Positions 54,431 to 60,503 are shown, counted from the first letter of the stretch. The stretch: DNA of 64,000 nt from Parasulfuritortus sp. (GCA_036391875.1 DASVZA010000024.1:38003-102002), one strand, 5' to 3'. A program made the numbers and translations. Notes: generated by a model from the letters alone, not told the origin.

Positions 54431-56485
54431 TTAATTCATAGCGTAGCCAGATAGAATAGTGCGCAGTTCAGATAATTGAACTATTTCGGGCAGGCAATTC
54501 GCCCCGGTGCAGACATAAGCCGTAACCCCGGTGCGTGCGGGCTTGTCCAGCGCGGCGGGCAGATCCGTGGTGCCGGACGGGATGGCGAATACCAGTGCGT
54601 GGTCCGGTGTGTCGGGTTGGATCTGTCGCAGCCAGGCGCTCAACTCGGTCTCCGGTCCGCGCAACACGGCGATGCAGGGCGGTGTGAGCAGTTCGTGCAA
54701 GGCGGTCAGCAGGCTGGGCGCCGGGGCGGGCTGGCTGGCCAAGGCGGCGTAGAAGCTGCGTACGGTCCGCTCGCCGGCTTCGATATAGCGCGTATCGCCC
54801 AGGATGTGGCCGAGCCGGATCAGGTTCAGCGCCGCCATGCCGTTGCCCGAAGGTGTGGCGGTGTCGTGCATGGGCTTGGGCCGCAGGATGAGCCGTTCGT
54901 GGTCGTGGCCGGTGAAGTAGAAGCCGCCCCGTTCGCCGTCCTCGAACCGGGCGAGCAGGGCATCGGCCAGCTCTTGCGCCCAGTTCAGTTCCTCGGCCCG
55001 GAAGTCGGCCTGCAGCAGTTCCAGCAAAGCGGCGAGCAGGAAGGCGTAGTCGTCCAGGTAGGCGTCGAACCGGGCCCGGCCGTCTTTGTAGCTGGCCATC
55101 AGTCGGCCATCCAACCAGAGCCGTTGCTTCAGCGCCTCGGCGGCCTGACGCGCCAGCACCAGCCAGTCCGGCCGGTCCATGCGCCGGGCGGCCCGGGCCA
55201 GGCCGCGGATCGTCAGCGCGTTCCAACTGGTCAGCCTCTTGTCGTCGAGGCCGGGGCGGACCCGATCGGACCGGGCCTCGAACAGTTTGCGCCGGGCGCT
55301 GTCCAGGCGGCGCTGTGCTTCGTCGACCGCGAGGTTCAGGTCTTCCGCAACAGCATGCGGCGACTTGGCCACGGACAGGTGCCAGTGTTTCTCTTCGAAG
55401 TTGGCCGGCCGGGTCAGGCCCCAATGGGGCGCGGCCACGGCGTATTCCTCATCGCTCAACAGGGCGCGCACCTGATCCGGTGTCCAGACGTAGAACTTGC
55501 CTTCCTCGTGTTCGGAGTCGGCATCCAGGGCTGAGTAGAACAGCCCCTCGGGCGAGCGCATCTCGCGCGTCAGCCAGTCGACGGTCATCTCCGCCGTCCG
55601 GGCGAACAGCGGTTCCTGCGTCCGGGCCCAGGCATCGGCGTAGAGGCCGAGCAGGGGGCCGTTGTCGTAGAGCATCTTCTCGAAGTGGGGGATGAGCCAC
55701 ATGGCGTCGGTCGAGTAGCGATAGAAGCCGCCGCCGACCTGATCGAACAGGCCGCCCTCGGCCATCTTGGCCAGGGTGAACAGAATCTGGTCGCGGGCCT
55801 CGGCGTCGCCCACGTGCAGCATGAATTCGAGTTCGGCCGGCCGAGGGAACTTGGGTGCGCCGTTGTAGCCGCCGCGTTCGGCATCGAACCCGCCCTTGAT
55901 GTCGGCCACGGCGGTGCGGATCGGGCGCTCGCCCAGTTCCAGCGGCAGGGGACCGGCCGGCATCGATTCGGCCAGTGCGCGCAGCACCTCGTCGTTCTGC
56001 GCCTCGATCTCGCCGCGCCGTTCGCGCCAGGCATGGGCCACGCTTTCCAGCAGTTGGACGATGCCGGGCAGGCCGAAGCGGGGTTCGCGCGGGAAGTAGG
56101 TGCCGCCGAAGAAGGGTGTCTGGTCCGGGGTCAGGAACATGGTCAGGGGCCAGCCGCCGGCGCGGCGGGTCAGCGTCTGCAAGGCGGTCTGGTAGATCTG
56201 GTCGAGGTCGGGCCGTTCCTCGCGGTCCACCTTGATGTTGACGAACAGACGGTTCATCACCGCGGCGACGGCCTCGTTCTCGAACGATTCGTGCGCCATG
56301 ACGTGGCACCAGTGGCAGGACGAGTAGCCGATCGAGAGCAGGATCGGCTTGTCCTCGCGTTTGGCCAACTCCAGTGCGTCAGGGCCCCAGGGGTGCCAGT
56401 CGACCGGGTTGTCCCGGTGCTGGAGCAGGTAGGGGCTGGTTTCTTGGGCGAGCGCGTTGGCCATGTCGGACATCCGTGAGGGCAT
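54431..56485 (-). CDS. Thioredoxin-domain/six-hairpin protein (YyaL/DUF255 family)
   Basis: [46 protein letters not shown]; start may be 56464. Confidence 0.88.
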
Positions 56486-56508: not shown

Positions 56509-56537
56509 CTAATCCCGACAAACGAAGTCGGGATTAG
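56509..56537. other. 11-bp perfect hairpin overlapping a stop codon
   Basis: CTAATCCCGAC-aaacgaa-GTCGGGATTAG. Confidence 0.55.
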
Positions 56538-56953
56538 GGTTTTTCTTCGAGCCGGTAGCTGGCGTGGCAGGCATTGCAGTTCTGCATGATTTCGCTCAAC
56601 TGCTTCATGCTGTGACCGGGGTCGCCCAGGCCTTCGGCGTCGGTGGCCAGGTTGTCGAAACCGGTGTGGGTCGCCTGGCCGAGTTCCTTGAACGGCAATG
56701 GGAAGCGCATGCGGGTGCTCATCGGCACCTTCTTGGCGCCGGCCATGCCCAGTTCATGGGCCGCGGTGGCGACCGACTTCATGTCGTTGTCGGCGATGCC
56801 GGCGGCGATCCGCTGGACGCCCTCCAGGAAGCCGCGCATCTCCTCCTTCACGGCCGCCGCTTCGTCAGCGGACACGGGCAGGGGCTGGCGGGCATCCTCT
56901 GCCTGGGCGGGCAGGGCGGCGAGGCAAAGTGCGGCGCAGAGCAGATAACGCAT
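56534..56953 (-). CDS. Helical c-type cytochrome with C-terminal heme motif (class II/c'-like)
   Basis: Signal peptide; helical body; CNACH near the C-terminus. Confidence 0.8.
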   Translation of the reverse strand: MRYLLCAALCLAALPAQAEDARQPLPVSADEAAAVKEEMRGFLEGVQRIAAGIADNDMKSVATAAHELGMAGAKKVPMSTRMRFPLPFKELGQATHTGFDNLATDAEGLGDPGHSMKQLSEIMQNCNACHASYRLEEKP

Positions 56954-56964
56954 GGCGGATTCCT

Positions 56965-58401
56965 TTATATGGTTTGCAGAATGTCCAGGGTGGTGGCGGC
57001 CATCAGCCGCATCTCCGGTTCCTCGATCACATAGGGCGGCATGAAATAGACGGTGTTGCCGATGGGCCGGATGAACACGCCCTTGGCCAGCGCCTGATCG
57101 TGGAAGCGGTGGCTGAAGCCGGCTGGAGCCTCCGCCACATCGAAGGCCCAGATCATGCCGGCGTTGCGGAAGTGGCGGACCCGCGGGTGAGCGCGTACTT
57201 CGTCCAGTATTTCCGTGAATCGAGCCGTCCGGACGCGGTTGGCGGCGATCACATGGTCCTGCTCGAAGATGTCCAGCACGGCTAGTGCAGCGCGGCAGGC
57301 CAATGGGTTGCCGGTGTAGGAGTGGGAGTGCAGAAAGCCCCGGGCGGTGTCATCGTCGTAGAAAGCGGCGTAGATCTCGTCCCGGGTCAGCACGGCGGAA
57401 AGCGGCAGGTAGCCGCCGGTGATGCCCTTGGACAGACAGATGAAATCGGGCCGGATGCCGGCCTGCGCCACCGCGGCGGTTTGGCGTTTATCGGCTACAA
57501 GGGACTGGGAAAGCCTGCCCACTTGCGCAGGCCCGGCGCCCCCTCCCGCACCGGCCGTCTCCGACGGCACCGAGTCGGGGCCGCCCTGCTCGCAGGCGAA
57601 CATCGTGCCGGTCCGGCCGAAGCCGACCGCGATCTCGTCGGCGATCAGGTGTACGCCGTAGCGGTCGCACAGCGCGCGGACCCGACCCAGATAGGCCGGG
57701 TGATGCATGGCCATACCGGCGGCGCCCTGCACCAACGGCTCGATGATGACGGCGGCAGTCGTTTCGGCATGGGCGGCGAGGTGGGCCTCCAGGTCGGCCG
57801 CGGCCCGCAGGGCATAGGCCTCGGCCGATTCGCCTGGCTCCGCCAGGCGCCAGTCCGGGCTCATGGCCTGATGGCTGTGCCGCAGCAGCGGCGCATAGGT
57901 GTCCTTGAACAGGGCGACGTCGGTGACCGACAGAGCGCCCAGGGTTTCGCCGTGATAGCCGTTCTTCAGGCTGACGAAGCCGGTCTTGGCCGGCCGGCCG
58001 GAGTTGCGCCAGAAATGGAAGCTCATCTTGAGCGCGATCTCGGTCGCCGAGGCGCCGTCCGAGCCGTAGAAGGCATGGCCCAGGCCGGTGAGTCGGGCCA
58101 GCCGTTCCGACAATTCGACCACGGGGGCGTGGGTGCAGCCGGCCAGGATGACGTGTTCGATCCGGTTCAGTTGATCGGTGATGGCGGCGTTGATGCGCGG
58201 TTCGGCGTGGCCGAACAGGTTGACCCACCAGGACGACACGGCGTCGAGATAGCGTTTGCCGTCGTAATCCACCAGCCAGGGGCCTTGGCCGCGTGCGATG
58301 GGCAGCGGCGGCATGGCCTCCAGTTGCTTCATCTGGGTGCAGGGGTGCCAGAGGGCGTTGCGGGTGCGGTCGAGCCAGTCGTGGTTGTCCATGACGGACA
58401 T
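56965..58401 (-). CDS. bioA: Adenosylmethionine-8-amino-7-oxononanoate aminotransferase, with a 41-aa in-frame insertion
   Basis: LWHPCTQM, SSWWVN, YHGET, DEIAVGFGRTG, SKGITGG, HSHSYTGN, YFMPPY. Confidence 0.92.
   Translation of the reverse strand: MSVMDNHDWLDRTRNALWHPCTQMKQLEAMPPLPIARGQGPWLVDYDGKRYLDAVSSWWVNLFGHAEPRINAAITDQLNRIEHVILAGCTHAPVVELSERLARLTGLGHAFYGSDGASATEIALKMSFHFWRNSGRPAKTGFVSLKNGYHGETLGALSVTDVALFKDTYAPLLRHSHQAMSPDWRLAEPGESAEAYALRAAADLEAHLAAHAETTAAVIIEPLVQGAAGMAMHHPAYLGRVRALCDRYGVHLIADEIAVGFGRTGTMFACEQGGPDSVPSETAGAGGGAGPAQVGRLSQSLVADKRQTAAVAQAGIRPDFICLSKGITGGYLPLSAVLTRDEIYAAFYDDDTARGFLHSHSYTGNPLACRAALAVLDIFEQDHVIAANRVRTARFTEILDEVRAHPRVRHFRNAGMIWAFDVAEAPAGFSHRFHDQALAKGVFIRPIGNTVYFMPPYVIEEPEMRLMAATTLDILQTI
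57463..57585. other. 123-bp in-frame insertion inside bioA, flanked by near-identical 10-mers
   Basis: Interrupts the usual CEQ-AGIRPDF; GCCGGCCTGC at 57457-57466 and GCCGCCCTGC at 57580-57589. Confidence 0.75.
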
Positions 58402-58973: not shown

Positions 58974-59046
58974 TTGACGTTGCGCCTTTCCATTCTCTAT
59001 AGTGGGCGTTGGTGGGAGAAAGTGGAGGAATGTGGGGTTTGGTGGA
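58974..59046 (+). promoter_or_regulatory. dcw promoter with MraZ-type direct-repeat operator
   Basis: TTGACG(58974)-N18-TATAGT(58998); GTGG[G/A] repeats at 59002, 59012, 59022, 59032 and 59042 (10-bp period). Confidence 0.8.
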
Positions 59047-59070
59047 GTTTCTGGGCCCCCTGGATCTGAG

Positions 59071-59541
59071 ATGTTTCGTGGCGCAACACCCCTCGCTCTG
59101 GACGGTAAAGCGCGTTTGGCGATACCGACCAAGTATCGCGACCTGCTCATGCAGCGTTGCGGGGGGCATCTCGTCCTTACGCTGGACCCGAGTGGTTGCC
59201 TGCTCCTCTATCCCTTCCCTGAGTGGGAGCCGATCGAGCGGAAGCTCAATGCGTTGCCCAGTTTCAATCCGGTCAGCCGCCAGATGCAGCGTCTGCTGGT
59301 CGGCTCGGCGACCGATGTCGAGATGGACGGTGCCGGCCGCATCCTGTTGCCGGGTCTGTTGCGCGAGCGTGCCACGCTAGAGCGGGATGTAGTCCTGGTC
59401 GGGCAAGGCAATAAATTCGAGGTGTGGAGTGCAGCCGGATGGCAGGCGCAATGCGACGCCGTGGCCGATCTTCCGGCGTTGCTGGACGAAGCGATGCGCA
59501 AGGGCGAGGTGCCGGATGAACTCAAGGACTTCTCGTTGTGA
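59071..59541 (+). CDS. mraZ: Division/cell wall cluster repressor MraZ
   Basis: [28 protein letters not shown]. Confidence 0.95.
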
Positions 59542-60503
59542 GCGCGGCCCAGGATATGGGCCACGCCTCCGTTCTGCTGGACGAAGCGATTGTGGCGCTG
59601 GACGTGAAACCGGATGGCGTCTACATCGATGCCACTTTCGGCCGGGGCGGGCACAGCCGGGCGATTCTCGCACGGCTCGGGCCGGCTGGCCGCTTGCTGG
59701 CGCTGGATCGCGATCCGCAGGCGGTGGCGGTCGCCCGGACCTGGGGCGATCCCCGCTTCGCCATCGTCCATGCGCCGTTCAGCCGGCTGGCCGCGGAAGC
59801 AAAGGCGCGCAGCCTGGCTGCGGTGGACGGGGTGCTGTTCGATCTGGGTGTGTCGAGTCCGCAGATCGACACGCCGGAACGGGGCTTCAGCTTCCGCTAC
59901 GACGCACCCCTGGATATGCGCATGGATACCAGTCGCGGCATGAGTGCGGCGGAATGGCTGAATACCGTGCCGGAGGACGAATTGGCCAGGGTGGTGCGTG
60001 ACTATGGCGAAGAGCGGTTTGCTAGGTCGGTTGCAAAAGCGATTGTCGCAGCGCGAGCGGATCAACCAATCACGACAACCGGGCGGCTCGCGCAGATTGT
60101 GGCGGGGGCGGTGCGCACGCGCGAACGCGGCCAGGACCCCGCCACGCGTACCTTTCAGGCTGTCAGGATTTACGTTAACCGGGAGCTTGATGAGATCGCC
60201 GAGGCGCTGCCACAGGCGGTCGATCTGTTGCGCCCCGGCGGGAGGCTGGCGGTGATCAGCTTCCATTCGCTCGAGGACAGGCTGGTGAAGCGCTTCATGC
60301 GGGGCGAGGCGAAGGGCGAAGAGTTGCCCCGGGAGATCCCCTTGACCGCCGGCGAACTCGCGCCGGGTCGGTTGCGCCTGGTCGGCCGCTCGATCAAGGC
60401 ATCGGTCGAGGAAGTGGCGCGCAATCCGCGTGCCCGCAGCGCCGTGCTGAGGGTGGCAGAACGGACCGTGGCGCCATTGCTGGAGCGGCCATGCAGCGGA
60501 TAA
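59538..60503 (+). CDS. rsmH: 16S rRNA m4C1402 methyltransferase
   Basis: [39 protein letters not shown]. Confidence 0.96.

Follow-up and report, generated by a model that had tools for sequence, protein, structure and literature searches.

In a 64,000-nucleotide stretch of DNA from Parasulfuritortus sp. (GCA_036391875.1 DASVZA010000024.1:38003-102002; hereafter the window), the biotin-synthesis gene bioA, which encodes adenosylmethionine-8-amino-7-oxononanoate aminotransferase (BioA, or DAPA synthase), is interrupted by an in-frame insert of 123 nt beside the active site of the encoded enzyme. We consider it probable that this insert is mobile-element DNA which came into bioA at a repeatedly used landing site and today is read through as a part of the enzyme. 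The first part of the insert is a genuine member of a dispersed, hairpin-forming repeat family, here called E, and the Ala codon at which the insert sits is a hot spot for small selfish DNA.

The open reading frame (ORF) containing the insert was assigned to the class-III aminotransferases by Pfam (PF00202, E-value 1e-93), and the solved structures closest to its product are those of BioA (3dod and 6wnn with E-values of about 1e-89, followed by 1qj5 and the E. coli and M. tuberculosis BioA). The product has the Aminotran_3 fold of BioA, and D255 and K325 are invariant in the alignments with its relatives. HMMER aligned the product to 3dod in two pieces (query 6-272 with chain 2-268, and query 315-469 with chain 270-434), so that about 41 residues have no counterpart in the known structure. 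These residues follow FACEQ and precede AGIRPDFICLSK, between the pyridoxal phosphate-binding Asp255 (IADEI) and the catalytic Lys325 (CLSKG), and they read GGPDSVPSETAGAGGGAGPAQVGRLSQSLVADKRQTAAVAQ, a peptide rich in Gly, Ala, Pro and Ser. An initial annotation of the window had noticed 41 extra residues in frame in bioA; the ORF and the gap in the 3dod alignment bear this out, and we read the same peptide from the same nucleotides with the frame kept. The GC content of the insert is 74%, compared with 65% for the whole window, and a search for a tandem repeat within the insert found none. The imperfect hairpin potential attributed to the insert turned out to be confined to one part of it: the whole 133-nt region including the flanking repeats folds like shuffled sequence (z=0.16), and the first 56 nt form a conserved hairpin supported by covariation.

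The hairpin of E was first derived from an alignment of eight copies, in which compensatory changes were seen. In an alignment of 12 sequences, 88% of the cells are paired, against 39-49% with slid partners, and 11 of the 19 base pairs show compensatory, two-sided changes; the observed values were reached by none of 500 shuffles. The structure has three tiers, with 9 bp in the outer stem, CUCG/CGGG in the middle stem and 6 bp in the inner hairpin; its loops GACWCGGT and GGTGCGGGA are invariant, and the fold of the DNA yields the same structure as the covariation. A covariance model built from the E alignment (R1) gave the copy in the window an E-value of 2e-16 as its sole match in the 64 kb, the next best place scoring 15 bits. 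A search of Rfam for E returned no family. E thereby has the short imperfect palindrome, the conserved sequence and the covarying stem of repetitive extragenic palindromic (REP) sequences and of the REP doublets that form hairpins (REPINs). A terminal GTAG or CGTC tag is absent from the E consensus; CGTC...GACG is present solely within the inner stem of the window's own copy.

The other part of the insert, its 69-nt tail, has no match in the rest of the genome, in the relatives, in any of the retrieved loci or in the genome collection (0 hits in an exact-pattern scan). Its similarity to the upstream bioA sequence is that of shuffled sequences (Smith-Waterman, p=0.66), by which a decayed duplicate of RTGTMFACEQ was ruled out for the window. 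The idea of a coding-compatible miniature repeat, put forward in the initial annotation, is largely right in kind: it holds for family membership and fails for the 123 bp as a multi-copy unit. The family accounts for no more than 56 of the 123 nt. A further E in inverted orientation was not detected by R1 within the insert or close to it, and no parent element was found. Regarding MITEs (transposable elements of the miniature inverted-repeat kind), which have an inverted repeat at each terminus and an autonomous insertion sequence related to them, the insert has a hairpin at one end and a tail without an inverted match; it does have a 10-bp direct repeat of the kind expected from target-site duplication. 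The flanking 10-mers, described earlier as near-identical and resembling a target duplication, are indeed 9/10 identical at a spacing of 123 nt. Since a match of at least 9/10 at a fixed spacing has a frequency of 2-5e-4 in the window, this likeness exceeds chance.

We searched for further copies of E in the own genome of the window (G000), an assembly of 45 contigs and 99.8% completeness in which the insert lies far from the ends of its 237-kb contig. BLAST of the 133-nt region returned only itself, and both BLAST and R1 found the bioA copy as the single copy of E, contrary to the expectation that the insert would be multi-copy in its own genome. Among 40 relatives, which are Thiobacillus-like betaproteobacteria, the first ~55 nt of the insert matched sites outside bioA. 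One is on the 3' side of rho (G004; 83% over 52 nt, E-value 1e-8), and the others are in the spacer that separates murB from ddl in G010, G013, G021 and, with two copies, G011; when these loci were read, E was found to lie between genes. The family copies anticipated in intergenic regions of relatives are therefore real. With R1, one to three copies were detected in eight relatives of the same family and 16 in G027, a member of another family in the same order. At an E-value of 1e-5 or lower, E is present in 57 of the 401 genomes of the order Burkholderiales (GTDB), covering 26 genera, with at least 14 copies in several genomes. The copies occur as solitary intergenic elements, as inverted pairs 30-140 nt apart and as forward/reverse tandem arrays of ~125 nt; inverted doublets are present in G027, G378, G075 and G109. 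The many dispersed copies and inverted doublets characteristic of REPs and REPINs are lacking in G000 and found in other genomes, such as G027 and the several genomes mentioned above. E is thus a structured repeat family of betaproteobacteria not described before, and, judging from its sequence and arrangement, it has in copy-rich genomes the anatomy of REP, REPIN or bacterial interspersed mosaic element (BIME) type repeats. A strict exact pattern of the E core had 0 matches in the genome collection; a loose pattern gave 120 matches in unrelated, mostly high-GC taxa, which we read as chance (17 specified bases in 596 Gb) and did not use.

Several loci of E showed additional features. In G378 (L146-L155), E is part of a ~250-nt composite repeat in which a forward E is followed, after ~50 nt, by a hairpin resembling reverse E and then by a tail, GTTGCTCACTCCTTGTTTGG...CCAAACGGCG, that is conserved. 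The murB-ddl spacer holds E in three genera (L132 in G013, L133 in G011, L134 in G021 and L135 in G010), and a diverged duplicate of ddl codons ~3-13 stands directly after the murB stop codon, before E; in entering this spacer, E may have displaced the former start of ddl. A unit of 127 nt, comprising E and the 5' end of ddl with its ATG, is present twice in G011. L131 (G004:C7:20440-20640) has one E on its own between convergent genes; on either side of it stand diverged direct duplicates of ~70 nt, in which the final seven codons of rho and its stop codon are contained.

To assess target duplication in the family, the left and right flanks of each copy of E were aligned and the scores compared with those of shuffled sequences. 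Long duplicates were found at three independent loci: the 3' end of rho in G004 (~70 nt, z=24), the 5' end of ddl in G010 and G011 (26-38 nt, z 9-26) and bioA with a reverse E (L174; 34 nt, z=12). The flanks of the E copies in the copy-rich G378 showed no such long duplicates. Transposition by Y1 transposases does not produce target duplications. Duplicates of 10-70 nt could stem from breaks that were staggered and then filled in, or from a switch of template in the course of repair; both would be compatible with the data. No copies of E were seen flanking a Y1 gene, and G000 has two Y1-like frames with no E nearby.

The second line of evidence comes from the insertion site. As judged from the DNA junctions, every class of occupant lies within the same Ala codon, the GCC between TGCGAGCAG and GGCATCCGG (GAGCAG^GCC^GGCATC). 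In relatives with an empty site TGCGAGCAG is followed directly by GCCGGCATCCGG, and the empty sites of G020 and G006 read GAGCAGGCCGG(C/T)ATCCG. A second palindrome, GGCCGG-CAT-CCGGCC, adjoins the target palindrome (Table 1) in the empty alleles; both are GC-rich and presumably play a role in targeting. Among the 40 relatives, G006, G008, G020 and others have no insert, G002, G004, G005 and G009 have a remnant of 5 residues, G003, G010, G011, G013, G016, G019 and G021 have inserts of 20-25 residues, and G023 (L034 2279-2573) and G012 (L040 2258-2549) have tandem arrays of 2.3 copies of 129 nt. The unit of these arrays is composed of 30 nt of bioA (RTGTxFACEQ) and ~99 nt bearing E in the opposite orientation: the G023 unit matches the plus strand of the window though bioA is on the minus strand (E-value 4e-8), and R1 places both array copies antisense to bioA. 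Reverse E together with a bioA duplicate of 30-34 nt also occurs in G012, in L174 and in at least 20 database proteins. Two to four tandem units of 43 aa (RTGTxFACEQ and reverse E), 86-98% identical within a gene, were observed in G023, G012, P0003 (Sulfuricella) and P0041. The core of the short inserts, ~40 nt (TCCCCTCGCCCTCCGGGAGAGGGGCTGGGGGTGAGGG), is a second dispersed hairpin repeat, E2, which is found in bioA in both orientations and has at least 22 copies in G009, G013, G014, G021 and G024 and 7 in G000. The short inserts of G003, G010 and G011 had been considered as decayed E, which was rejected as they are copies of E2.

We then searched a protein collection with BioA residues 250-335 and classified the segment from FACEQ to PDF in the 120 matches. 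The site holds either AGIR alone, 15-22 aa left over from a solo E2, a back-to-back pair of E2 copies (34 aa), a single reverse-E unit together with its bioA duplicate (47 aa, in at least 15 proteins), between two and four such units (P0056, P0003 from Sulfuricella, and P0041), a DUF559 domain between inverted E2 copies (160-200 aa, 25 proteins; PF04480 with an E-value of 7e-36 in P0004), or a reverse-E unit followed by a DUF559 cassette (P0020). Cassettes of the Vsr-like DUF559 occupy the Ala codon in many Thiobacillus-like BioA, for example P0004 and P0006; the window's own insert has no DUF559 domain, Pfam finding PF00202 alone. E in the sense orientation was found among the 120 BioA only in the window, in P0002 (a distant BioA from an independent assembly) and in P0016 (a 14-aa remnant). 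Mixed occupants were observed in P0017/P0018, P0020, P0049, P0075 and P0081, and they include two cargo-less E2 copies, a reverse E beside a DUF559 cassette, and a reverse E followed by E2 remnants. The pair of cargo-less E2 copies looks like a cassette that lost its nuclease, and later arrivals seem to go in next to the elements already present, in every case at the FACEQ^A junction. Relatives hold other hairpin repeats or a nuclease cassette there, which makes the Ala codon a place where small selfish DNA lands repeatedly. The initial annotation had allowed for a lineage-specific loop present at the same site in most related BioA proteins; the relatives are instead empty or carry different elements, in either orientation.

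DUF559 is also inserted elsewhere in G000. RecG (823 aa; G000:C23:21831-22268, L169 ORF 625..3096, minus strand) contains an in-frame DUF559 domain at residues 427-532 (E-value 2e-37), between helicase motif II (VDEQHRFGV) and MSATPIPR, with inverted E2 copies at its borders (LPSPTGRGAGGEG ... PSPPAPPPEGEG). A second DUF559 frame is located at G000:C7:19061-19375.

BioA appears to tolerate the insert. The gene is single-copy in its nearly complete genome, and its ratio of nonsynonymous to synonymous substitutions (dN/dS) of 0.15-0.20 against five congeners indicates purifying selection. An AlphaFold2 model based on 77 sequences (mean predicted local distance difference test score, pLDDT, 80.4) has no secondary structure and a pLDDT below 50 at residues 282-312, and it retains the strand 251-256, the helix 266-272 and the strand 320-323 carrying Lys325, with the BioA core intact; Foldseek superimposes it on BioA structures with TM scores of 0.85-0.88. 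Because of the single gene copy, the purifying selection, the disordered modelled loop and the kept core, we favour a floppy loop: the insert is most likely translated as a disordered surface loop linking the FACEQ segment to the Lys325 strand, as the initial annotation had also supposed, and the modelled enzyme would stay active. The insert presumably has no function of its own.

How these observations combine can be outlined as follows. The element would have arrived by break-and-repair or by transposition at the GC-rich double palindrome, and survival in bioA would be limited to insertions that are free of stop codons and have a length that is a multiple of three, a filter that would leave every variant in frame. 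In a tree built from 110 BioA proteins after masking of the insert, the well-supported branches require a minimum of 7 state changes for DUF559 and likewise 7 for reverse E, a minimum of 11 for E2-like inserts and a minimum of 4 for the empty state; the proteins were chosen by similarity to the site region, which inflates the occupied share and biases the proportions of the states, not their intermixing. Besides this sampling, several points weigh against our interpretation. Of the 123 nt of the insert, 69 have no match, and the window insert has no long target duplication beyond the 10-mer (z=1.8), unlike the other E sites. As E is single-copy in G000, there is no visible donor and no recent transposition is demonstrated. 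No transposase is linked to E: a Y1 gene of the REP-associated tyrosine transposase (RAYT) kind (PF01797) was looked for in the 16-copy G027 and none was found. Translation and activity of the insert-bearing BioA are themselves inferred.

A bolder reading, to which we give a rather low probability, is that the Ala codon between FACEQ and AGIRPDF is a true homing site. DUF559, as the candidate nuclease, would cleave alleles without an insert at their double palindrome, GCCTGCGAGCAGG^CCGGCATCCGGCC; when the break is repaired, the cassette would be copied in or E2 or E hairpin modules captured from elsewhere, and the 123 nt of the window would be one such repair product. This would explain why inserts stand in both orientations, why the target duplications vary in length (10 to 70 nt) and why units are amplified in tandem. 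The shared landing site is all that links E to DUF559, nothing further being shown. If homing does occur, it would represent a third way, beside introns and inteins, for selfish nucleases and hairpin satellites to live inside essential genes, by staying in the finished protein.

The window insert could also have arisen without any independent insertion, through in-place inversion and decay of the widespread 129-nt unit, which is made of a 38-nt spacer, reverse E, 9 nt and the 30-nt RTGTxFACEQ duplicate and is carried by G023, G012, Sulfuricella and a large number of metagenomic BioA. This unit sits at the same codon, its length agrees with that of the insert (129 versus 123 nt; 56 for E plus 38 plus 30 makes about 124), its E in G023 is 83-84% identical to that of the window, and the window BioA clusters on the tree with P0046 and P0056, which carry reverse units. 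However, the tail has no significant likeness to the bioA duplicate (by the Smith-Waterman test above) or to the reverse-complemented spacers of G023, G012 and L174 (for these also by eye), the window E abuts the target directly and not after 9 nt, and the sense-orientation P0002 stands on a very distant BioA branch. We therefore regard the inversion as unlikely.

Less credible is the suggestion that E is a functional RNA or DNA structure, such as a hairpin for mRNA stabilisation or processing or a protein-binding site, that was recruited into bioA and is not selfish DNA. The invariant loops and covarying stems do resemble a motif recognised by a protein or an RNA, the murB-ddl copy is kept across three genera and along the direction of transcription, and REPs have often been proposed as RNA elements (PMC3733652). 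Such a function is hard to reconcile with the occurrence of E in both orientations in bioA, its absence from close relatives, the unrelated inserts at the same codon and a copy number that varies from 0 to at least 14 between genomes, and we consider it very unlikely.

An ordinary low-complexity loop grown by replication slippage, with a likeness to E due to coincidental GC-rich palindromy, would suit the GC-rich genome and insert, the Gly/Ala-rich peptide and a whole-insert fold no better than shuffles, but on the sequence comparisons it is effectively refuted and has hardly any probability left: R1 scores 67 bits on the insert and at most 15 bits anywhere else in the 64 kb, blocks of 15-16 nt are exactly shared with the G023 unit, BLAST connects the insert to the intergenic G004 copy, and there is no tandem repeat. 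That the insert is an assembly artefact or bioA a dead pseudogene is equally far-fetched, the draft state of the 45-contig genome being outweighed by the completeness of the assembly with its single bioA, the position well inside a long contig, and independent assemblies with the same kind of insert at the same codon; the frame, intact over 478 codons, and the dN/dS ruled out a pseudogene.

Table 1. Features of the bioA locus and its insert (positions in the window)
Feature	Position	Strand	Description
bioA (adenosylmethionine-8-amino-7-oxononanoate aminotransferase)	56965-58401	minus	478 aa, insert included; single long ORF
Insert	57463-57585	minus	123 nt = 41 codons, in frame; between CAG (Gln272) and GCC GGC ATC CGG (AGIR)
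Element E	57532-57587	minus	56-nt three-tier hairpin; first part of insert; model R1 67 bits
Insert tail	57463-57531	minus	69 nt; encodes PAQVGRLSQSLVADKRQTAAVAQ; no match to any sequence compared
Left flanking repeat copy (coding sense)	57580-57589		GCAGGGCGGC; window strand GCCGCCCTGC; overlaps start of E
Right flanking repeat copy	57457-57466		GCAGGCCGGC; window strand GCCGGCCTGC; native target sequence
Target palindrome GCCTGC-GA-GCAGG(C)	57585-57597	minus	encodes A-C-E-Q; immediately 5' of every insertion
Empty site sequence, Ala-codon target			TTCGCCTGCGAGCAGGCCGGCATCCGGCCCGAT
Catalytic Lys325 codon (CLSKG)	57427-57429	minus	11 codons downstream of insert; from BioA structure alignment
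Junction peptides of insert in BioA			…MFACEQGGPDSVPSETAGAGGGAGPAQVGR and …QTAAVAQAGIRPDFICLSK

The neighbours of bioA encode a 684-aa thioredoxin-domain (YyaL-like) protein (54431-56485, minus) and a 139-aa secreted protein (56534-56953, minus). The ORFs in 59002-60503 (plus) we take, judging by their sequence alone, to be mraZ and rsmH, the start of the cell-division cluster. E was not found when the neighbouring genes were scanned with R1.

Near the catalytic lysine of an essential enzyme, one codon has thus received, in different lineages and in either orientation, small selfish DNA of three or more unrelated kinds, with many changes on the BioA tree. It offers a test system in which the target is defined, alleles with and without an insert exist in nature, and DUF559 stands at the same spot as a candidate nuclease, and it raises the questions of how the site is chosen, why some insertions have long target duplications, and how much foreign peptide is tolerated by a loop close to the active site of a pyridoxal phosphate enzyme. 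E itself adds an undescribed structured repeat family to the betaproteobacteria.

The insert shares with inteins the in-frame position beside catalytic residues of a conserved enzyme and the reuse of the site across lineages. Unlike inteins, it has 41 residues only, lacks a Cys/Ser/Thr start, a His-Asn end and the Hint fold (a Hint domain has at least ~130 aa), and no protein splicing is therefore expected. Its first two residues are Gly-Gly and its last two Ala-Gln, with Ala next in the chain, in agreement with the earlier statement that intein motifs are missing, and an intein was ruled out by motif and size.

In-frame insertions of REPs and of Rickettsia palindromic elements (RPEs) in protein genes are documented (Di Nocera et al. 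2013, PMC3733652; review PMC10969869). Like these intragenic repeats, E is a short GC-rich palindromic repeat read through in a conserved enzyme, most plausibly in a loop, with other copies that are intergenic and often inverted pairs, and only neutral insertions are expected to survive. Unlike them, E is single-copy in G000, the repeat makes up half of the insert, the site is common to unrelated elements, and in this family unusually long target duplicates (26-70 nt) stand on both sides of solitary E copies. The RPEs invoked in the initial annotation are a fitting precedent for the kind of event and probably not kin of E, which, no RPE sequences having been compared, is set apart from them by its betaproteobacterial hosts and its single copy here. 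E also differs from the REP superfamilies (PMC3733652) in being without a GTAG or CGTC tag. The inverted doublets and alternating ~125-nt arrays of E in G027, G378, G075 and G109, together with the covarying stem and conserved unpaired bases, are like those of REPINs and BIMEs, unlike whose RAYT-mobilised forms E has no RAYT gene in G027.

Vsr-like or EDxHD homing endonucleases occur in introns and inteins (I-Bth0305I, PMC3239194; PMC2677866) and are the nearest published relatives of the DUF559 cassettes. Unlike these cassettes, the window's insert has neither a nuclease domain nor E2, E being a different hairpin family. Like the window's insert, the DUF559 cassettes use the same BioA codon, lie in frame beside active-site motifs of conserved enzymes and are read through unspliced.

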